From the IMG/VR virus record IMGVR_UViG_2698536480_000008: a DNA stretch of 15,191 bases, one strand, 5' to 3'. Shown one piece after another: positions 1 to 12,405 of the stretch. Source of the DNA: a virus. Lineage: Duplodnaviria; Heunggongvirae; Uroviricota; Caudoviricetes. A model generated the notes under the pieces. That model saw nothing but the letters and a program-made list of their open reading frames with translations. It searched no databases and was not told where the DNA came from. Every line of letters starts with the position of its first letter. Position 1 is the first letter of the stretch. Both the position numbers and the translations under genes were made by a program.

Positions 1-156
1 TTACTCCCCAAGTTCGTAAGCTGTGAAGACAGCGACCTCCGTCTGGTCGGTTCGGATTCGTACCTCGCAGAGGTCTTTCCTCGTTACCAGTACCGTCACT
101 ATAACGGTTAAACAGATGACGATCAGGGCGACTAACATCGCCTTTTGCTGCTTCAT
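1..156 (-). CDS. hok: Hok/Gef-family type I toxin, 51 aa (HokD/HokC-like); an in-frame upstream extension to 213 gives a 70-aa mok-like ORF
   Basis: Minus-strand ORF ending at the TAA at 3..1. Translation from the internal ATG (156..154) is MKQQKAMLVALIVICLTVIVTVLVTRKDLCEVRIRTDQTEVAVFTAYELGE: a single transmembrane helix plus the conserved RKDLCEV.R motif of Hok/Gef toxins, very close to HokD/RelF as I remember it. Paralogue assignment is uncertain. Confidence 0.75.
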   Translation of the reverse strand: MKQQKAMLVALIVICLTVIVTVLVTRKDLCEVRIRTDQTEVAVFTAYELGE

Positions 157-415
157 AGCCTGCTTCTCCTTGCCTTTCGGCACGTAAGAGGCTAACCTAC
201 ATGTGCAAAGCATGAAATTGGCCTCAGATTAATGTTAAGCGTCTTGCCGGATGCGTAATGTTAACTGGGGCTTTTCTCTATCTGCCTTTGATGTTCATGC
301 CCGAGGCAGATAGCCTCAAGTATCCGCAGCTATTTGTCTGCTGTTACCACCTACCTGCGCCAATCACTGACTCTACAAAGATCTATCCGCGATAACATTT
401 TGAGTTTAAGAACTT

Positions 416-444
416 TTGCGTACGCACCAAAAGATGCATATACT
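416..444 (+). promoter_or_regulatory. Candidate sigma70 promoter (TTGCGT, 17-nt spacer, TATACT) for the ORF1-ORF2 operon
   Basis: -35 TTGCGT at 416-421, 17-nt spacer, -10 TATACT at 439-444, about 40 nt upstream of a GGAG ribosome-binding site and the ATG at 486. Found by eye; AT-rich DNA yields chance matches. Confidence 0.4.
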
Positions 445-485
445 AGACTAGTCATAGTTCTAATCTGCTTGATTATGGAGTCAGG

Positions 486-1544
486 ATGAGTTTCCTTTCT
501 GAACAAGACGTACAAAATTTAGTCATTAATAAAATGATCTTTCACGTTGTAGGTAAGAATCTTGAAGCACCGACACTTCTCAAAGAAATAAAACCAGTTC
601 AGCATGTGGATTTTTTTCTTGAACGTATCAAATCTTCACTGAAAGGAAATCTTTTCACTTTTCTGGAGAATTCAAATACCGAAAGAATCCTGCGTATCAT
701 TAGAGATAAAGCAGATGCTGAAGCTAATTGTTTTACAGAACAATCGAAGCTACTGGCCAGTGATTTTCAGTCACACCATTCTAGCGGTAACACGAGTATG
801 GGATGCTTTTTCTTATTTGAATTGGTTTCAGATAAGGAAAAATTCTATGCAATTATAAAATACGATAATGAAGATGTGGTTCGTTATGTTCTTGACGAAA
901 AGTTATCTGAAGAACAAATGCCTACTTTAGAAAGATTTCATGAAACTTTCGTAAAAAAAGCTGAGGCAATGCAAAAAATAGCGTTAATTCAACTTGATCC
1001 AAGTGGGAAAGGCGGGAAAGTTATTGTAAAAGACAGGAGTAAAAGAACCAATATTTCAGGATATTTTAAAGGCTTCTTAAATGTTAAAAGAGTCAACTCT
1101 GAAATTGAACTTTGCAATAAGCTTATTGATGCGCTGAAAATAACCTTCAAAAGGCATAAAGAATTATTGCCAGAGTCAATTCAAAAAAGCGGCGTAAATA
1201 AAATATATGAAGTTTTAAGCAGAGCTGATTTCGAATATAATCCTGAAGATGCTTCTCCGTTATTGACCAGCATTTTTGGGCCGTTAGATGAAAAATCACC
1301 AATTCTCAACACATTCAAAACTCAAACAAAAAATGCTGGTATTGAAGGCGAATCCTTTACTATAAAAGCAGATGGCATTCATAAACCACCAAGACGAAAA
1401 ATTGAAACTGCAGAAAGTGTAGTAATTAGTTATAATGAAGATGACCGTCCAGAAATAAGAAACTTAGATGATGGGCGAAAACAAATTATTGTTACTACTG
1501 CGAGGATTATTACTGATGACATCGATACTTCAAAAAATCGATGA
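486..1544 (+). CDS. Hypothetical soluble protein, 352 aa; possible distant NA37/NdpA(YejK)-like nucleoid-associated DNA-binding fold; first gene of the candidate cargo operon
   Basis: ATG at 486 preceded by GGAG (477-480); uninterrupted 352 codons in ~35% GC DNA; no hydrophobic segments. Local resemblance to YejK as remembered (GCFFLFELV vs GGFVLFCHY; GYFKGFL vs DFFMDFL; N-terminal I.H.. pattern). The 3' end overlaps ORF2 by 29 nt. Confidence 0.7.
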   Translation: MSFLSEQDVQNLVINKMIFHVVGKNLEAPTLLKEIKPVQHVDFFLERIKSSLKGNLFTFLENSNTERILRIIRDKADAEANCFTEQSKLLASDFQSHHSSGNTSMGCFFLFELVSDKEKFYAIIKYDNEDVVRYVLDEKLSEEQMPTLERFHETFVKKAEAMQKIALIQLDPSGKGGKVIVKDRSKRTNISGYFKGFLNVKRVNSEIELCNKLIDALKITFKRHKELLPESIQKSGVNKIYEVLSRADFEYNPEDASPLLTSIFGPLDEKSPILNTFKTQTKNAGIEGESFTIKADGIHKPPRRKIETAESVVISYNEDDRPEIRNLDDGRKQIIVTTARIITDDIDTSKNR

Positions 1545-2949
1545 GTCTATACAGGCGTCAAGGAAAGACCCTGAATTTTTGGCATCAGAATCAATAAAAA
1601 ATGATTCTGCGCGCGTTCTAATTTCTGCCAAAATGGACAAAGATGCACTCATTCTTTGGCAGTACGTTTACGAAAACGTACCAAATTGGATTGAAATTAC
1701 TGTTAAAGATGACTGTAATGATGAAGTAAAACCATCGTCATGCAGTGAAGGTGATAAACTTAACATTACGCTAAAATGCATTGCATTCGAAAATAACAGG
1801 TATATTTTTACGCTCGAAGGGTGGAATGTTTTTCTACACAATGATGATTTAGTATCAATAACCAATAAAGTGAATATTCTCGGTTTGAAACATGGATTTG
1901 AAACTTTAGGATATTCTGTTGAGCCATGGAACCATGCTCCAGAAAAAATTGAACCTAATGAAACCGTACGAACTTCAATCAATTTACAGAGCTACGTTAA
2001 ATTCTATTCTAGTGAGTTCATGCCTGCATCTGATATAGCTCCTTGGGTACTTTATAAAATGCCTGAGGCAGAGGACAACTTTTTCAAAAAATGGTTACAA
2101 GTTTCCTGCAATATGCTTTGTCGCACTCTCGTTAATGAATTATTAGCAGATGAAAAGAAATCAATTTGTTTAACTGGAAAGCCACCAAAAAAATTAATTT
2201 ATGGAGATCCAGACATTCTGCTTTCCGACTATTCAGTTTTACAAACTGTAATAAACTGGATCTTTATTGAGGGCAATGAGATTGAACTCAAACATACTTT
2301 CTTCACAAGTGAGTTAGCACGAGAATGGCCAGAGTATGTATCCTTCTGTGAGGGTTTACCAAAAAAACTCCCTATGGCCTTTGAGTCAGCAAAATTACTA
2401 TATAAGGCCCACATTCGCGCTAGCAGCAGAGAGACTATTAAATCTCTGTCCGATCTAAGGAAAACCTTAGCTGAAGACACGCAAAAAATAATAAGTCAGT
2501 CTAAAGACATCACATCCGCTCTTTGGAAAGATCTGGCTCTGGTTATAAGTCTATTTGCAATAAAATATGCGCTAGACGCATCAAAGATTAATATAACCAA
2601 TAACATATTCCCATATATGTTCTTCGCGTTATCTATATATATTTTTATATCTCAGGTTACAACTCTCTTCATAAATAAAAATTACTTTAAGATACTTGAT
2701 AATACTAGGCTAGTCTGGAGAGATAAACTATATGGTTTTCTTGATGATACTGACTATGAGAATCTTGCAGTCACACCATTAAGAGAGGCATACAAAGCTT
2801 ATCAGATTATAGCCACATTCGTTGTGATTCTGACTTTGCTGATTTCATTTATAATGATCATATTAGGATTCTCAATGCTTGATGAACATGCTACGAATGC
2901 AATTACCTCTTGGCTCAGTTCTCACTTAATCAATAGTTACTGTAGTTAA
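1516..2949 (+). CDS. Hypothetical membrane protein, 477 aa: ~360-aa N-terminal soluble domain plus two to three C-terminal transmembrane helices; candidate effector
   Basis: ATG at 1516 with GAGGA (1502-1506) 9 nt upstream, overlapping the ORF1 stop (translational coupling). The six-frame track begins at 1468 but that start has no ribosome-binding site. Strongly hydrophobic segments NIFPYMFFALSIYIFISQVTTLFI and YQIIATFVVILTLLISFIMIILGFSML, plus a weaker LALVISLFAIKYAL. No recognisable catalytic motif. Confidence 0.7.
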   Translation: MTSILQKIDESIQASRKDPEFLASESIKNDSARVLISAKMDKDALILWQYVYENVPNWIEITVKDDCNDEVKPSSCSEGDKLNITLKCIAFENNRYIFTLEGWNVFLHNDDLVSITNKVNILGLKHGFETLGYSVEPWNHAPEKIEPNETVRTSINLQSYVKFYSSEFMPASDIAPWVLYKMPEAEDNFFKKWLQVSCNMLCRTLVNELLADEKKSICLTGKPPKKLIYGDPDILLSDYSVLQTVINWIFIEGNEIELKHTFFTSELAREWPEYVSFCEGLPKKLPMAFESAKLLYKAHIRASSRETIKSLSDLRKTLAEDTQKIISQSKDITSALWKDLALVISLFAIKYALDASKINITNNIFPYMFFALSIYIFISQVTTLFINKNYFKILDNTRLVWRDKLYGFLDDTDYENLAVTPLREAYKAYQIIATFVVILTLLISFIMIILGFSMLDEHATNAITSWLSSHLINSYCS

Positions 2950-2976
2950 TTTAAGGCGAGAGAAACTCGCCTTAAA
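2950..2976. terminator. GC-rich stem-loop between the convergent ORF2 and Q-like gene stops; possible bidirectional terminator or RNA-stability hairpin, non-canonical
   Basis: tttAAGGCGAG-agaaa-CTCGCCTTaaa: an 8-11 bp perfect stem with a 5-nt loop, flanked by T3 upstream and A6 downstream on the plus strand. Neither transcript gets a proper U-tract immediately 3' of the stem, so intrinsic termination is uncertain. Confidence 0.35.
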
Positions 2977-2979
2977 AAA

Positions 2980-3498
2980 TCAACGGTAATAGATACAACC
3001 TGCAATAAATCCCATTGCCATTTGCATTTTTTTCCTTATTTTACCATCTGAACATTCGTTTATCTTAGCTAAACAACGCAATGAAACTCCCATAACAAAA
3101 TGAGCGATAATTAACTCATAGTCATCTATCCTATATTGTTTAAGCCTCAACATGCAGGTATCAATTATACCCCCTTCATCATTGCTGCACTGACGACGTG
3201 ATTTTTTACCATGAGGAACAACATTTTTATATTTATCAGCTATTTCCTGCCAATCAATAGAACTATTTTCAGCTACAGCCCAGGCTCCCCAACCGTCCAA
3301 AATATCATATATATTAGCATTGCTATCTACCTGTTTTTTATATTCTTTTTTGAAGCGCGCAAGAAGCATCCTAGCCATCGTTATTATTTCTATACTTGTA
3401 ACTGATTCATAAGCATCAGGAGAAATAATTCTCCCATCACTTAATGCCCCATCACTAAGATTTGCTATTTCCAATAATCGTTCTTTAGTTATTTCCAT
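2980..3498 (-). CDS. Phage antitermination protein Q homologue (Q82/Q933W-type, Phage_antitermQ-like C-terminal domain) with a ~60-aa N-terminal extension
   Basis: Minus-strand ORF. The ATG at 3498..3496 has GGAG 6 nt upstream; the track start at 3510 is a GTG. The C-terminal ~115 aa carry motifs I recognise from Q of Stx phages: WGAWA, SRRQC..DEGGIIDTCMLRLK, Y.LI..HFVMG.S, CSDGKI.K. The gene is AT-rich (~35% GC), unlike the backbone. Confidence 0.55.
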   Translation of the reverse strand: MEITKERLLEIANLSDGALSDGRIISPDAYESVTSIEIITMARMLLARFKKEYKKQVDSNANIYDILDGWGAWAVAENSSIDWQEIADKYKNVVPHGKKSRRQCSNDEGGIIDTCMLRLKQYRIDDYELIIAHFVMGVSLRCLAKINECSDGKIRKKMQMAMGFIAGCIYYR

Positions 3499-3658
3499 TA
3501 TTATCTCCACCGCCTTTTCGGGCGGCCTCCTGATGATTTGAGAGTGCAGGAATTCCTCCGATTAAGGACTCTATTTTATTCACAGTGCTGAATTTAATTA
3601 TTCAGATTTGGATTATGCTTTCTCTTTCACTTCACCAAGTTCCGATTATTAATTTGGC

Positions 3659-4081
3659 TCACAACAGCACCTCTTGAAAGTTTCCCCGATAAAACGCCAG
3701 TACACGCTGCATAACTTCTCTTTTACGGCACTCACTACAAATTATATTATGACGCCTGTCGTAACGACGTATTTCTCCGTCAGATAACGAGCAGATAAGG
3801 TCAGGATCAACCATAACCGGTTCCTTCGACTTTGCACTCGAGAGTTTTTTGCTGGCGTTTTGCCAGTCTTTACGTGCCTGCTCAGACGGGAATAACCCGT
3901 AGCCAGAGTTGTATACGTAACCACTCGAAACCAGCTCTTTGGCGAGAATACTTATCAGATATCTGGTTGCCCCTGTTTTAGCTTCCAGTTGTCGTAACGT
4001 CTCTCGCTCACTCTGGCGTACGAGATCAACAATCTGCCCTTTAATTTTTTCTCGCTCTTCCTGTGTTAATACTTTTGCCAT
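3659..4081 (-). CDS. Hypothetical prophage protein, 140 aa, with a Cys/His-containing C-terminus
   Basis: ATG at 4081..4079 preceded by a strong GGGGAGGG ribosome-binding site; the track start at 4147 has none. Sits 16 nt downstream of the preceding gene on the same strand. No motif recognised. Confidence 0.5.
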   Translation of the reverse strand: MAKVLTQEEREKIKGQIVDLVRQSERETLRQLEAKTGATRYLISILAKELVSSGYVYNSGYGLFPSEQARKDWQNASKKLSSAKSKEPVMVDPDLICSLSDGEIRRYDRRHNIICSECRKREVMQRVLAFYRGNFQEVLL

Positions 4082-4097
4082 AAGCCCTCCCCTAGAA

Positions 4098-4859
4098 TCA
4101 CTTTTCCGACACAATACGACTGGAGGAATCGACAATCTGACGGACAATATCCTGGTGCTTGTTCAACTCACGCAGCGCGGCGCAGACACGCTCCCACTTC
4201 TGGACATGATTTTTCGCCCGACGCAGTTCGCGGTTTGCCATATGCAGTGATGGTAAAACCAGGTCATCCGCTCGCGTTTCAGTAAACGATGGCAGCGACT
4301 GCACAATGTCCGCCACAGTTTCTGTTTTAATATCTTCCTGTGTTGCAGCCTCCTGTACTGGTAACGCAACACCTGCGGTCTGAGGAAAGGCCTTACCATC
4401 AGTTTCCGCTACCGATGCTGCTTTCGGCTCTGCTGGTAAATTATCGCCCGGTATGCAGTAACGAAATTTACCGCCCTGATTTACGCGAATCAGACGACCT
4501 TTGCTGATTGCCATTGCCAGCGTTGAAGCCACTTTGCGTGATGTGGTACCAAACAATGTAGCCAGCTCATCAGCCGTTTGTGGTCCTCGTTGTTCAATCG
4601 TCGCGGTTAAATCGCACTCTGAGATTTTCGCTACTGTTGCTGTGGTGATTTCTTCCGGCAGTTCTGCCTGCGCTGGCTGTTCCTGCTGAACATTGTTATC
4701 AGCCACACGCCAGGTGTACGCGCTTTTATCAACAAAACCAGCCTTTTTCAGTTCCCATAGTTCGTTCAGCACTTCTTCACGACTGATATCAAGTCGCGCA
4801 GCAAGTTCTATGGATGTGGCTTTTCCCATTGCTTTCAGTGCGTCAAAAACAGTCTCCAT
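4098..4859 (-). CDS. Hypothetical prophage protein, 254 aa; possibly a full-length counterpart of the YdaW-type protein that follows ydaV in Rac
   Basis: ATG at 4859..4857 with a GGGAG ribosome-binding site, 22 nt downstream of the ydaV stop. N-terminus [43 protein letters not shown] looks like a winged-helix domain. Family assignment from memory is uncertain. Confidence 0.55.
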
Positions 4860-6492: not shown

Positions 6493-6504
6493 GGAAACTT
6501 TTGC

Positions 6505-6630
6505 TTAATGAACAATGACAGAATCGTCGGAAGAACCGCCGCCGCTGAAATGCGCTTTCCGGTAAACGGCTTGGACTGCATCATCATGCGCATCAATTGC
6601 CGTACTTAACGCTTCCTGCGCCGCCAGTAT
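6505..6630 (-). pseudogene. ydaT: 3' remnant of ydaT (last ~40 codons) without a start codon, left by a ydaS-ydaT deletion
   Basis: Minus-strand frame ending at the TAA at 6507..6505 translates to ...LAAQEALSTAIDAHDDAVQAVYRKAHFSGGGSSDDSVIVH*, matching the YdaT C-terminus as I remember it. Upstream of about 6630 the frame runs into the ydaS ORF in another frame. Confidence 0.45.
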
Positions 6631-6826
6631 CAGGACGAAGTTCTTCGCACAGAACCTCACCTCTTGTTGCACGTTCAATTGCTGGACATCTCTCGGCAGG
6701 CAATTGACGTACCCCTTTGATCCATTGATTTACGCTTGGAGGTGATACACCTAAAAGCCTAGCCATTGCTGATTGCCCACCGACAACAGCACAAGCTTGC
6801 TTGAATGAATAGTTCTCTTTTTTCAT
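6593..6826 (-). CDS. ydaS: Cro-like helix-turn-helix regulator, 77 aa, probably C-terminally altered by a deletion
   Basis: ATG at 6826..6824 with a GGAG ribosome-binding site. MKKENYSFKQACAVVGGQSAMARLLGVSPPSVNQWIKGVRQLPAERCPAIERATRG is a Cro/CI-type HTH, divergent from racR. K-12 YdaS is ~98 aa by memory; here it ends early in ...TGGAGSVKYGN. Confidence 0.7.
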   Translation of the reverse strand: MKKENYSFKQACAVVGGQSAMARLLGVSPPSVNQWIKGVRQLPAERCPAIERATRGEVLCEELRPDTGGAGSVKYGN

Positions 6827-6949
6827 CGAATGAACTCCAAAAACACACAGAAATATTAGGCGACGCCTAACGCAATTGTCAATAGGCTGTGCCTAATGCG
6901 GTAAGGGTAGGGATTGCCTAATGTAATGCGCATAGGAGAATATTAAGCA
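6827..6949. promoter_or_regulatory. Divergent ydaS/racR promoter-operator region with TTAGGC-type palindromes
   Basis: Perfect 15-bp palindrome TTAGGCGACGCCTAA (6855-6869), inverted repeat TAGGCTGTGCCTAA (6883-6896), a further GCCTAA half-site (6916-6921), and the 13-bp motif ATTGTCAATAGGC (6875-6887). Lies between the divergent start codons of a repressor/Cro pair. Confidence 0.55.
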
Positions 6950-7426
6950 ATGCTTAGTGGTAAAGACTTAGGCCGAGCGATAGAGCAGGCCATTAACAAA
7001 AAAATCGCATCGGGATCCGTCAAATCAAAGGCGGAGGTCGCACGCCACTTCAAAGTCCAACCACCATCAATTTATGACTGGATTAAGAAAGGCTCTATAA
7101 GTAAAGATAAACTTCCAGAATTATGGCGTTTCTTTTCTGATGTTGTTGGTCCAGAGCATTGGGGGCTTAACGAATACCCCATACCAACCCCCACCAATTC
7201 AGATACAAAAAGTGAACTTTTAGATATAAACAACCTTTATCAAGCAGCCTCTGATGAAATAAGAGCGATTGTAGCTTTCCTGTTATCTGGAAATGCTACA
7301 GAACCAGATTGGGTTGACCACGATGTTCGCGCCTACATAGCAGCGATGGAAATGAAAGTGGGTAAGTATCTGAAAGCTCTAGAATCTGAACGGAAAAGCC
7401 AGAACATCACAAAAACTGGAACTTAA
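6950..7426 (+). CDS. racR: Rac prophage repressor, 158 aa
   Basis: ATG at 6950 with an AGGAG ribosome-binding site (6934-6938); 158 aa with an N-terminal HTH (KAEVARHFKVQPPSIYDWIKKG). Divergent from the Cro-like gene; length matches RacR. Confidence 0.85.
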   Translation: MLSGKDLGRAIEQAINKKIASGSVKSKAEVARHFKVQPPSIYDWIKKGSISKDKLPELWRFFSDVVGPEHWGLNEYPIPTPTNSDTKSELLDINNLYQAASDEIRAIVAFLLSGNATEPDWVDHDVRAYIAAMEMKVGKYLKALESERKSQNITKTGT

Positions 7427-9804: not shown

Positions 9805-12405
9805 ATGAGCACAAAACCACTCTTCCTGTTACGGAAAGCGAAAAAATCATCCGGTGAACCTGACGTCGTCCTGTGGGCAAGCAACGATTTTGAATCGACC
9901 TGTGCCACTCTGGACTACCTGATCGTTAAGTCAGGTAAAAAACTGAGCAGCTATTTTAAAGCTGTTGCCACGAATTTTCCTGTCGTTAATGACCTGCCCG
10001 CTGAAGGTGAGATCGATTTTACCTGGAGTGAACGCTATCAACTCAGCAAAGACTCCATGACATGGGAACTAAAACCGGGAGCAGCACCAGACAACGCTCA
10101 CTATCAAGGCAATACCAACGTCAACGGCGAAGACATGACTGAGATTGAGGAGAATATGCTACTCCCAATTTCTGGCCAGGAACTGCCCATTCGTTGGCTT
10201 GCTCAACACGGCAGCGAAAAACCGGTAACGCACGTTTCACGCGACGGACTCCAGGCATTACACATTGCTCGGGCTGAAGAACTACCGGCTGTTACTGCCC
10301 TGGCTGTTTCCCACAAAACCAGCCTGCTCGACCCGCTGGAAATTCGCGAACTCCACAAACTGGTTCGTGACACTGACAAAGTTTTCCCTAATCCTGGTAA
10401 TTCAAACCTGGGACTGATAACTGCTTTTTTCGAAGCATACCTGAACGCTGACTACACCGATCGAGGAGTGCTGACAAAAGAGTGGATGAAGGGTAATCGT
10501 GTTTCACACATCACTCGCACGGCTTCCGGTGCTAATGCTGGCGGCGGAAACCTCACCGATCGCGGCGAAGGTTTCGTACACGATCTGACGTCACTGGCGC
10601 GCGACGTAGCCACTGGCGTACTGGCCCGTTCAATGGATCTGGACATCTATAACCTTCATCCGGCACACGCTAAACGCATTGAGGAAATTATCGCTGAAAA
10701 TAAACCGCCCTTTTCTGTTTTCCGCGACAAATTCATCACCATGCCTGGCGGGCTGGATTATTCCCGCGCCATCGTGGTTGCGTCCGTAAAAGAAGCACCA
10801 ATTGGGATCGAGGTCATCCCCGCGCACGTCACTGAATATCTGAACAAAGTACTGACTGAAACCGATCATGCCAACCCTGATCCGGAAATCGTGGATATTG
10901 CCTGCGGTCGCTCCTCTGCCCCGATGCCGCAGCGAGTAACAGAAGAAGGAAAACAGGATGATGAAGAAAAACCGCAACCATCTGGAACAACGGCAGTTGA
11001 ACAGGGAGAGGCTGAAACAATGGAACCGGACGCAACTGAACATCATCAGGACACGCAGCCGCTGGATGCTCAGTCACAGGTAAATTCTGTTGATGCGAAA
11101 TATCAGGAACTGCGGGCAGAACTCCATGAAGCCCGGAAAAACATTCCATCAAAAAATCCTGTCGATGCCGATAAATTGCTTGCTGCATCACGTGGTGAAT
11201 TTGTTGACGGAATTAGCGACCCGAACGATCCGAAATGGGTAAAGGGGATCCAGACTCGCGATTGTGTGTACCAGAACCAGCCAGAAACGGAAAAAACCAG
11301 CCCAGATATGAATCAACCTGAGCCAGTAGTGCAACAGGAACCGGAAATAGCCTGCAATGCCTGCGGCCAGACTGGCGGGGATAACTGCCCTGACTGTGGT
11401 GCGGTGATGGGCGACGCAACATACTAGGAAACATTCGATGAAGAGAGTCAGGTTGAAGCTAAGGAAAATGATCCGGAGGAAATGGAAGGCGCTGAACATC
11501 CGCACAATGAGAATGCTGGCAGCGATCCGCATCGCGATTGCAGTGATGAAACTGGCGAAGTCGCAGATCCCGTAATCGTAGAAGACATAGAGCCAGGTAT
11601 TTATTACGGAATTTCGAATGAGAATTACCACGCGGGTCCCGGTATCAGTAAGTCTCAGCTCGATGACATTGCTGATACTCCGGCACTATATTTGTGGCGT
11701 AAAAATGCCCCTGTGGACACCACAAAGACAAAAACGCTCGATTTAGGAACTGCTTTCCACTGCCGGGTACTTGAACCGGAAGAATTCAGTAACCGCTTTA
11801 TCGTAGCACCTGAATTTAACCGCCGTACAAACGCCGGAAAAGAAGAAGAGAAAGCGTTTCTGATGGAATGCGCAAGCACAGGAAAAACGGTTATCACTGC
11901 GGAAGAAGGCCGGAAAATTGAACTCATGTATCAAAGCGTTATGGCTTTGCCGCTGGGGCAATGGCTTGTTGAAAGCGCCGGACACGCTGAATCATCAATT
12001 TACTGGGAAGATCCTGAAACAGGAATTTTGTGTCGGTGCCGTCCGGACAAAATTATCCCTGAATTTCACTGGATCATGGACGTGAAAACTACGGCGGATA
12101 TTCAACGATTCAAAACCGCTTATTACGACTACCGCTATCACGTTCAGGATGCATTCTACAGTGACGGTTATGAAGCACAGTTTGGAGTGCAGCCAACTTT
12201 CGTTTTTCTGGTTGCCAGCACAACTATTGAATGCGGACGTTATCCGGTTGAAATTTTCATGATGGGCGAAGAAGCAAAACTGGCAGGTCAACAGGAATAT
12301 CACCGCAATCTGCGAACCCTGTCTGACTGCCTGAATACCGATGAATGGCCAGCTATTAAGACATTATCACTGCCCCGCTGGGCTAAGGAATATGCAAATG
12401 ACTAA
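9805..12405 (+). pseudogene. recE: recE (exonuclease VIII) interrupted by an in-frame amber codon at codon 541 (TAG 11425-11427); otherwise a full-length 866-codon frame
   Basis: The 540-aa ORF (9805-11427) and the 307-aa ORF (11482-12405) are in the same frame, separated only by the TAG and 18 sense codons ([18 protein letters not shown]); 540+1+18+307 = 866, the RecE length. The downstream part holds the RecE nuclease domain and ends in ATGACTAA, overlapping the recT start. Confidence 0.85.
11482..12405 (+). CDS. recE: Possible C-terminal RecE fragment (307 aa, complete exonuclease domain) if translation reinitiates or the amber is suppressed
   Basis: In-frame ATG at 11482, but GGAGGA sits only 1 nt upstream, so initiation is doubtful. 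The fragment covers the C-terminal region known to suffice for RecE nuclease activity. Confidence 0.3.

Follow-up and report, generated by a model that had tools for sequence, protein, structure and literature searches.

A Q-type antiterminator gene of a Rac-type prophage and its predicted DNA site on the far side of an exchangeable cargo cassette

Introduction

A Q gene directly followed by its own promoter, pause site, and terminator forms a textbook regulatory cassette. The locus considered here departs from that arrangement, and raises the question of where the DNA site of its Q protein lies and what the protein does there. The gene, ORF3, is located in a 15,191-nt stretch of Caudoviricetes DNA (IMG/VR record IMGVR_UViG_2698536480_000008; hereafter, the window), which corresponds to the early half of an Escherichia coli prophage of the Rac type. 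An earlier note, made from the sequence alone, described ORF3 as an AT-rich Q-type antiterminator gene convergent with a cargo operon (ORF1 and ORF2), whose 3' end occupies the DNA where the late promoter and qut site are normally found. Two outcomes were envisaged in it: Q-dependent late transcription running antisense through the cargo towards hok, or an orphan Q that had arrived with an AT-rich block. The comparison of this locus with its relatives points to another answer, in which the Q site is displaced, not lost, and Q-dependent transcription would start beyond ORF1–ORF2.

ORF3 and Its Relatives

ORF3 is almost certainly a member of the Q family. Residues 66–173 match PF06530 with an E value of 1.3e-33 (115.8 bits, cut-off 26), a profile on which Q21 itself scores 87.4 bits (E 9e-25), and the protein also matches phrog_79, "anti-termination protein Q-like" (E 5e-33). 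A profile of ORF3 relatives retrieves the Q21 chains (6P18, 6JNX) as the sole significant match in the PDB (E 5e-6), the pairwise identity between ORF3 and Q21 being around 25% (E 0.23), and the identical 172-aa product is labelled "antiterminator Q family protein" in RefSeq. PF06530 represents the Q21/Q933W family, distinct from the Q-lambda family (PF03589) and the Q82 family (PF06323) (Yin, Kaelber and Ebright, bioRxiv 10.1101/651190). Neither PF06323 nor PF03589 matches ORF3 at E values up to 0.1, so that of the Q933W/Q82-like domain proposed in the earlier note the Q933W part stands and the Q82 part does not. The AlphaFold2 model of ORF3, built on a 46-sequence alignment, has a mean pLDDT of 54 and is therefore too poor for a fold comparison.

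The gene starts at an ATG at 3498, seven nt downstream of a GGAG, and an alternative GTG at 3510 would give a product of 176 aa. Its low GC content (0.349, compared to 0.45–0.53 in the neighbouring early genes) agrees with the earlier description, and similar values (0.35–0.39) are found in the related genes irrespective of their cargo.

ORF3 is the fusion of a Q21/Q933W-family domain to an N-terminal module. This module is near-invariant across 18 "long Q" proteins of 170–185 aa from E. coli and Salmonella; residues 1–63 match phrog_3323 (E 2e-14 to 3e-14), and Pfam has no model for the module. In a search of 1.84 billion representatives, the N-terminal 61 aa retrieved only long-Q relatives and three proteins of ~190–206 aa with other C-termini. 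In the latter (P0072, P0075, and P0076), a phrog_3323-like module with the consensus ERL.EIA.L....LS.G.II.PDAY..V.S.EI...AR.LLA is joined to unrelated C-terminal regions. The small gene upstream of Q in the Stx1a phage Stx1_499 was considered as a detached version of the module, and was discarded because the two share no similarity.

Most relatives of ORF3 are "short Q" proteins of ~115 aa, 55–60% identical to the ORF3 domain, which are encoded by Stx1a phages, mEp460, and many enterobacterial prophages. The helix–turn–helix (HTH) region is conserved between long and short Q. Of 5,426 complete E. coli genomes, 68 contain long Q and 484 a member of the wider clade, and intact copies of long Q are also found in Salmonella; a long-Q profile search of genome contigs yielded only short-Q loci in other genera. 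As judged from the dN/dS values of six long-Q genes (0.16–0.39), long Q is under purifying selection.

A Conserved 12-mer on the Far Side of the Cargo

The element that best qualifies as the site of ORF3 is the 12-mer GCGTACGCAAAA, on the Q strand, 2555 nt downstream of the ORF3 stop codon and just beyond the cargo. Even with two mismatches allowed, it has a single copy in the window, at 411–425. No Q site therefore adjoins ORF3, and no cognate Q-binding element was found in a promoter immediately downstream of the gene, which confirms the earlier suspicion that promoter and qut are not adjacent to it.

Among 91 loci encoding a Q of the ORF3 clade, GCGTACGCAAAA occurs exactly, once, and always on the Q strand in ~83, at 644–3765 nt downstream of Q. 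Most of the loci missing it have too little downstream DNA; four with at least 5 kb of such DNA have no exact copy. It behaves alike in 15 of 16 further loci from Enterobacter, Citrobacter, Erwinia, Lonsdalea, Providencia, and other genera, when ~0.1 copies per megabase would be expected by chance. All eight unique long-Q contexts, the window included, hold it exactly, and Stx1_499 shares an exact 15-mer with window positions 425–411, located behind convergent genes and upstream of stx1. In pairwise alignments of the window with other long-Q prophages, homology extends through the DUF977 gene, the leader, and ORF3 to ~2990–3080, is lost across the cargo, and resumes with hok/sok at 335. At the edge of the variable segment, the 12-mer forms an island of identity within otherwise non-aligning DNA.

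The short-Q loci suggest what this element does. In the annotated record of phage 21, PR'21 consists of a -35 element, two 8-bp Q-binding subsites filling the spacer, a -10 element, the start, a sigma-dependent pause element (SDPE; TAAGCTG), and a terminator within 50 nt. In the short-Q loci, all 72 unique contexts have a TAnnnT hexamer at +7 after the 12-mer, and 57 of them have one at +2. The box TGTTAAGAGTGG comes next in 75 of 81 unique contexts, and most sequences show an intrinsic terminator. By this geometry, the 12-mer of the short-Q relatives fills the slot of the Q-binding element (QBE) in a classical PR'–terminator unit.

Promoter units of several Q clades were gathered by scanning IMG/VR for the box (loci L119–L237). 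The sequences occupying the slot upstream of it are GCGTACGC, GCGGTCCGC, TACGTACGTA, TACGATCGTA, TTCGTTACGAA, TGTTATAACA, GCGCTACGC, GGAATTCC, and GCGGGCCGC; these have a palindromic core with an A/T tract after it, and each of them belongs to a single Q clade. Every Q cluster (80% identity) has one slot type or close variants of it, as in the case of GCGTACGC (21/21), and the slot sequence follows the Q clade, irrespective of the cargo. The unit abuts Q at 2–43 nt in some clades (for example, in the 933W-like Stx2 phage Stx2_112808) and lies 0.6–3 kb away in others; the GCGGTCCGC type occurs in both states. Cargo between Q and the unit is found in several clades, with ~1.67 kb for TACGTACGTA, 0.6–3 kb for TACGATCGTA/TACAATCGTA, ~0.75 kb for TGTTATAACA, and in some of the GCGGTCCGC loci. 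In locus L095, a related motif occupies the slot directly after Q, with neither cargo nor a divergent gene. A DNA element that tracks a protein clade across kilobases of unrelated DNA bears the signature expected of a cognate site, and on these comparisons the 12-mer is very probably the cognate site of ORF3.

Two other origins for the 12-mer were considered and rejected. It is not part of hok/sok, since short-Q loci carry it without hok, nor is it likely to be a target of DUF977, which is absent from short-Q phages.

The Slot between Q and Its Site

ORF1 and ORF2 form a convergent operon of 2.5 kb that faces ORF3. Their predicted promoter overlaps the 12-mer, whose opposite strand, TTTTGCGTACGC, contains the -35 hexamer TTGCGT. 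A TAnnnT hexamer follows TTGCGT at 17 nt in 32 of 46 unique contexts and at 18 nt in 6 of 46, with no other spacing occurring in more than five. A consensus promoter scan called neither this promoter, which it missed because TTGCGT scores 3/6, nor a rightward promoter at the site. Owing to the overlap, occupancy of the 12-mer by Q is expected to interfere with the cargo promoter.

At least 20 cassette types, most of them unannotated, occupy the interval between Q and the 12-mer, and their proteins fall into 45 clusters. The cassette genes are nearly all convergent with Q, and the last one usually ends within ~40 nt of the Q stop. PADLOC matches among the cassettes include PD-Lambda-5 A+B, PDC-M53, PDC-S60, PDC-S42, NsnA, and methyltransferases, the latter partnered with a GmrSD-like or a ParB-like protein, and Pfam matches include GmrSD_N, HEPN, RelA_SpoT, NACHT, and NA37. 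PD-Lambda-5, a system found experimentally by Vassallo et al. 2022 (PMC9519451), occurs in this Q-to-site slot. With its conserved flanks, variable content, and known defence genes, the slot is a prophage defence hotspot.

In the window, ORF2 matches no Pfam family, and PADLOC v2 reports nothing for ORF1, ORF2, or ORF3. NA37 proteins are present in four other cassettes at the equivalent slot, one of them paired with RelA_SpoT (type I-like), and several pairs of an NA37 and a membrane protein are found among the cassettes. Type II PANGU systems combine a nucleoid-associated protein as sensor with a transmembrane effector, that is, a YejK/NA37-like protein with a C-terminally membrane-anchored partner (bioRxiv 10.64898/2026.04.06.716658). 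The likeness of ORF1–ORF2 to them is one of architecture, compared by description only.

Stx1_499 (L012 4373–6480) carries three convergent hypothetical genes between Q and the PR'–tR' unit preceding stx1, which places the slot inside the regulatory path to Shiga toxin 1.

Insertion sequences (IS) strike the slot repeatedly (H2, L002, and L007). Among these cases are a copy of ISKpn26 within the region equivalent to 1–4200 in one strain, an IS3-family element inside a DUF6731 cassette, and an IS1-associated deletion that extends from inside ORF2 to the tail-fibre genes and spares ORF3.

The junction between ORF3 and the cargo is as the earlier note had it: the stop codons at 2949 and 2980 enclose a 30-nt gap with a stable hairpin. 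Its 11-bp stem has folding energies of -18.4 and -17.8 kcal/mol on the two strands (z scores of -6.2 and -5.2), and none of 200 shuffles is as stable. The stem is not followed by a U-tract on either strand, and the terminator scan makes no call. Read-through from the early promoter by unmodified polymerase past this U-less hairpin could yield antisense RNA over the cargo.

The coordinates of all these features are collected in Table 1.

Table 1. Positions of the features discussed in the text (window coordinates unless stated otherwise).
Feature	Position	Strand	Description
hok/sok module	1–335	minus	hok ORF 1–156/213; sok/leader 151–325; next unit after the site along the Q strand
Candidate rightward -10, TAAACT	408–403	minus	5 nt after the 12-mer; read from the sequence; weak evidence
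12-mer GCGTACGCAAAA	425–414	minus (Q strand)	Predicted cognate site of ORF3 (Q-binding-element slot); overlaps the cargo -35 on the other strand
Predicted cargo promoter	416–444	plus	-35 TTGCGT (416–421), 17-nt spacer, -10 TATACT (439–444); GGAG, then ORF1 ATG at 486
ORF1	486–1544	plus	NA37/YejK-like nucleoid-associated protein; PF04245, E 1.2e-12 over the whole length
ORF2	1516–2949	plus	477 aa (493 aa from a start at 1468); hydrophobic C-terminal helices read from the sequence; putative membrane effector
Stop-to-stop gap	2950–2979		30 nt between the stops of ORF2 (2949) and ORF3 (2980); stable hairpin
ORF3 (long Q)	2980–3498	minus	172-aa fusion: N-terminal module (residues 1–61, 3316–3498) and Q21/Q933W-family domain (residues 66–172)
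ORF3 leader	3499–3610	minus	~110 nt; palindrome CTGAATAATTAAATTCAG and two hairpins directly before the Shine–Dalgarno sequence
Second Q (DUF1133)	L001 17990–18652, ~1.9 kb beyond hok, outside the window		Reaches the PF06530 threshold (26.1 bits)

Proposed Mechanism and Alternative Readings

Since Q acts in trans, the separation of Q and its site need not break the pair, and a recombination slot open to defence cassettes may be what has driven the two apart. Upon induction, the RacR-controlled early promoter would express ORF3, and ORF3 would bind the 12-mer. Polymerase starting beside the site, possibly from the candidate -10 element TAAACT, would be made termination-resistant by ORF3. Transcription would then be relayed past the island, via hok/sok and the terminator-like hairpins, into the genes for DUF1367, YbcO, and DUF1133, and the latter would turn on the lysis and morphogenesis genes. 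At the same time, the occupied site would block the cargo -35 element, lowering the expression of the defence cassette during the prophage's own lytic growth. This relay, in which ORF3 binds a displaced site and launches termination-resistant transcription into a second Q, is mildly favoured as a whole; that long Q still antiterminates at the 12-mer, rather than binding only, is a component to which slightly under an even chance would be given.

The second Q is a general feature, as every long-Q prophage has one just before the lysis genes. In the prophage of the window it is a DUF1133 protein, with an extended -10 element (TGcTATGCT) and a strong terminator within ~100 nt of its gene, so that this unit looks like the true late Q–PR'–tR' ahead of the tolA-like and lysis genes. 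The lysis genes, whose presence the earlier note had left to be inspected, are found ~4 kb beyond hok, preceded by this unit. In other prophages the second Q is also DUF1133 (Salmonella), a member of the Q-lambda family (in Qin-like prophages; PF03589 detects the second Q of L003), or a member of the Q82 family (PF06323; L116). The next co-directional genes after the site are those for hok, DUF1367, YbcO, and DUF1133, and not lysis or morphogenesis genes, with several terminator-like hairpins between hok and DUF1367.

Several observations argue against the relay or against the site on which it depends. None of the eight unique long-Q contexts has a positionally fixed -10-like hexamer, a pause box, or a nearby terminator after the 12-mer; there is therefore no visible conservation of a canonical loading platform, and in AT-rich DNA TAAACT may have arisen by chance. 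Because a second Q is always present, late switching does not require long Q, and a promoter-like sequence directly upstream of the DUF1367 gene (TTTACA-16-TATACT) could express the downstream genes independently. As for the site, the slot motifs are palindromic, in contrast to the direct repeat of the solved Q21 site.

The alternative that survives best is that long Q binds the 12-mer without loading on polymerase and merely shuts the cargo promoter on induction, leaving all antitermination to the second Q. In this way, early transcription could continue beyond the U-less hairpin and across the island, and the phage would not be attacked by its own defence system. The only positionally conserved promoter beside the 12-mer in long-Q loci is indeed the leftward cargo promoter (6/8 contexts), and the rightward -10, box, and terminator, at 0/8, stand against the high frequencies of the +7 hexamer (72/72) and the box (75/81) in short-Q loci. 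The invariable second Q and the lack of a U-tract in the hairpin after ORF3 fit this view as well, and binding to an operator as a dimer could be aided by the palindromic core GCGTACGC and by the additional N-terminal module. On the other hand, the residues that are invariant across the family outside the HTH (WGAW and GKK..QC..DEG..ID) are all retained in long Q, as expected if a polymerase-directed function is kept. Unmodified polymerase would also still meet hok/sok and the hairpins that follow before reaching the DUF1367 gene, and a comparison of the terminators after Q in long-Q and short-Q loci gave no clean difference, both classes being mixed. Repression without antitermination is the main rival of the relay, at a rather low probability, and the sequence data do not decide between it and the relay.

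It is improbable that the 12-mer has nothing to do with Q and has been kept as the cargo -35 element (plus an upstream T-tract) or as the recombination boundary of the slot. Its location at the edge of the variable segment and the occurrence of TTGCGT with TAnnnT at 17–18 nt in 38 of 46 unique contexts would suit such a role, but a -35 hexamer accounts for six conserved bases and not for twelve. The dependence of the slot sequence on Q clade and not on cargo, the related motif that directly follows Q in L095, where there is no cargo or divergent gene to serve, and the position of the short-Q 12-mer relative to the -10, box, and terminator, which matches that of the mapped Q21 QBE, are likewise left unaccounted for.

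The proposal that ORF3 is an orphan or decaying Q, which came with the AT-rich cargo and has no present function, is very unlikely. It draws on the low GC common to ORF3 and ORF1–ORF2, the lack of an adjacent promoter, and the late genes having their own Q paralogue. Against it, the AT-richness is independent of the cargo, gene and leader keep 75–91% nucleotide identity across prophages with unrelated cargo, and the homology breaks only at the 3' end of ORF3 and not upstream of it. The dN/dS values, the near-invariant N-terminal module, the occurrence of intact copies in Salmonella and in 68 of the complete E. coli genomes, and the exact 12-mer in all eight long-Q contexts also speak against it.

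Finally, a Q-dependent late promoter directly downstream of ORF3, with transcripts running antisense through ORF2–ORF1 to hok, has gene order alone and some possible run-on past the U-less hairpin in its favour and is scarcely credible, given that the gap has only 30 nt, that the promoter scan reports nothing within or beside 2950–2979, that the only site copy within two mismatches is the one at 411–425, and that the cargo separates Q from the site in ~100 relatives too, none of which has the site between Q and cargo; transcription launched at 425–414 on the Q strand would head away from the cargo, into hok.

Comparison with Known Systems

The closest experimentally resolved counterpart is Q21/PR'21 (PDB 6P18/6P19/6P1A; OL657228). 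Like ORF3, Q21 belongs to PF06530 and is encoded at the end of the early-right operon, and, like the short-Q relatives, its unit has the site in the spacer, a -10 element, a TAAG-type sigma-dependent pause element, and a terminator within ~50 nt. However, the Q21 site is a direct repeat (ATTGAGCA AATGAGCA) that starts 15 nt after the Q stop, with the -35 hexamer 7 nt after the stop, whereas the core of the predicted ORF3 site is palindromic, and convergent genes intervene over the 2.55 kb between ORF3 and this site. Q21 also lacks the extra 61-aa N-terminal module, and ORF3 is followed by hok and a second Q instead of lysis genes.

The Q933W-type units of Stx2 phages (Stx2_112808, LC567830) belong to the same PF06530 family, with 40% identity to the ORF3 domain. 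They share the TGTTAAGAGTGGTTAC box and the terminator with the short-Q relatives, and have the related slot motif GCGGTCCGCAAAA. In contrast to the locus of the window, their promoter unit stands ~15–40 nt after Q, and the methylase, tRNAs, stx2, and lysis genes are co-directional, with no cargo between.

The short-Q phages (Stx1_499, mEp460, and Klebsiella and Enterobacter prophages) have the identical 12-mer, convergent variable cargo, and TTGCGT as the cargo -35. Unlike long-Q loci, they lack the N-terminal module and hok, and keep the -10, the pause box, and the terminator. Their unit leads directly into stx1 or other late-region genes (annotated examples, L012 and L013).

As in the prophage defence hotspots already described (PMC9122126; PMC9519451), conserved flanks enclose rapidly exchanged cassettes with known and unknown anti-phage systems. 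Those hotspots are found in another phage group and at another position, while the slot described here is bordered by a regulator gene on one side and by its predicted DNA site on the other, this site doubling as the -35 element of the cassette.

The proposed relay resembles the N-then-Q cascade of lambda in having two successive antitermination steps before the late genes, but its first step would be a DNA-loaded Q-type factor and not the RNA-loaded N. A further parallel is the antisense promoter paQ inside the Q gene of lambda, as in both cases convergent transcription may restrain Q in the lysogen; here it comes from the cargo operon, and not from a CII-dependent promoter.

Implications

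Taken singly, the parts of this locus are of known kinds: the Q protein belongs to an established family, and both defence hotspots and hok/sok modules are familiar. The variant features are the splitting of the Q/site pair by a cassette slot, the site that doubles as the cassette -35 element, and the position of the long-Q fusion ahead of a second Q. The layout is common to hundreds of related phages. In the full-text literature, a search whose coverage leaves out most subscription journals turned up no account of a slot for cargo between Q and PR'.

In several Q clades, the Q/site pair is routinely split by 0.6–3.8 kb of convergent and fast-changing cargo, while the site co-varies with the protein. 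This provides a simple rule for harvesting uncharacterised defence candidates, which extends from the Q stop to the slot motif of the clade, and the slot motifs predict DNA sites for many uncharacterised Q proteins. The overlap of site and -35 element suggests a direct route by which a prophage could switch off its own defence genes on going lytic, the order of the two Q genes hints at a possible Q-to-Q cascade in prophages of the Rac/Qin type, and the Stx1 phages have an equivalent slot between Q and PR'–stx1. It can be proposed, tentatively and with more doubt than confidence, that one contact does two jobs: at the onset of lytic growth, Q would launch terminator-resistant transcription and silence the prophage's own defence, with long Q taking the place of N as the first stage of a Q-to-Q relay in Rac/Qin-type prophages, and with the slot serving as a general point of cassette exchange in several Q clades across the Enterobacterales.

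Prophage Setting and Neighbouring Features

Positions 1–4,200 of the window are 99.9% identical to E. coli strain 13E0767, where the prophage is complete and integrated beside ttcA. Along the minus strand, the order is ydaS-like, ydaU, ydaV, DUF1627, DUF977, and ORF3, followed by the cargo and then by hok, DUF1367, YbcO, DUF1133, lysis, and terminase genes. ORF3 is the distal end of the rightward early operon, on the same strand as the replication genes, and hok/sok, beyond the cargo, is again on that strand.

The module after the site matches hok (PF01848, E 2.6e-21) and sok (Rfam RF01794, 99 bits), and no stable structure was detected in window 330–430. Among unique contexts, long Q is found with hok within 420 nt of the site in 7 of 8, never with the pause box, and short Q is never found with hok. 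The -10 element of the hok promoter (window 336–347, minus strand) reads ACAAAT here, compared to TAGAAT or TAAAAT in other long-Q loci, so that hok may lean more on upstream transcription in this prophage.

The leader of ORF3 is kept in 7/7 aligned long-Q loci, whichever gene is upstream. In an Rfam scan of 1–4200 only sok was found, with nothing for the leader or the site region.

Two further differences from strain 13E0767 lie elsewhere in the window. Between ydaU and racR (6493–6950), it holds a single ORF for a 77-aa YdaS/Cro-like protein, where 13E0767 has ydaS and ydaT and ~420 nt extra. In addition, recE, intact in 13E0767, is interrupted by an in-frame stop at 11425–11427 on the plus strand (..DATY*ETFDEE..), giving ORFs of 540 and 307 aa.

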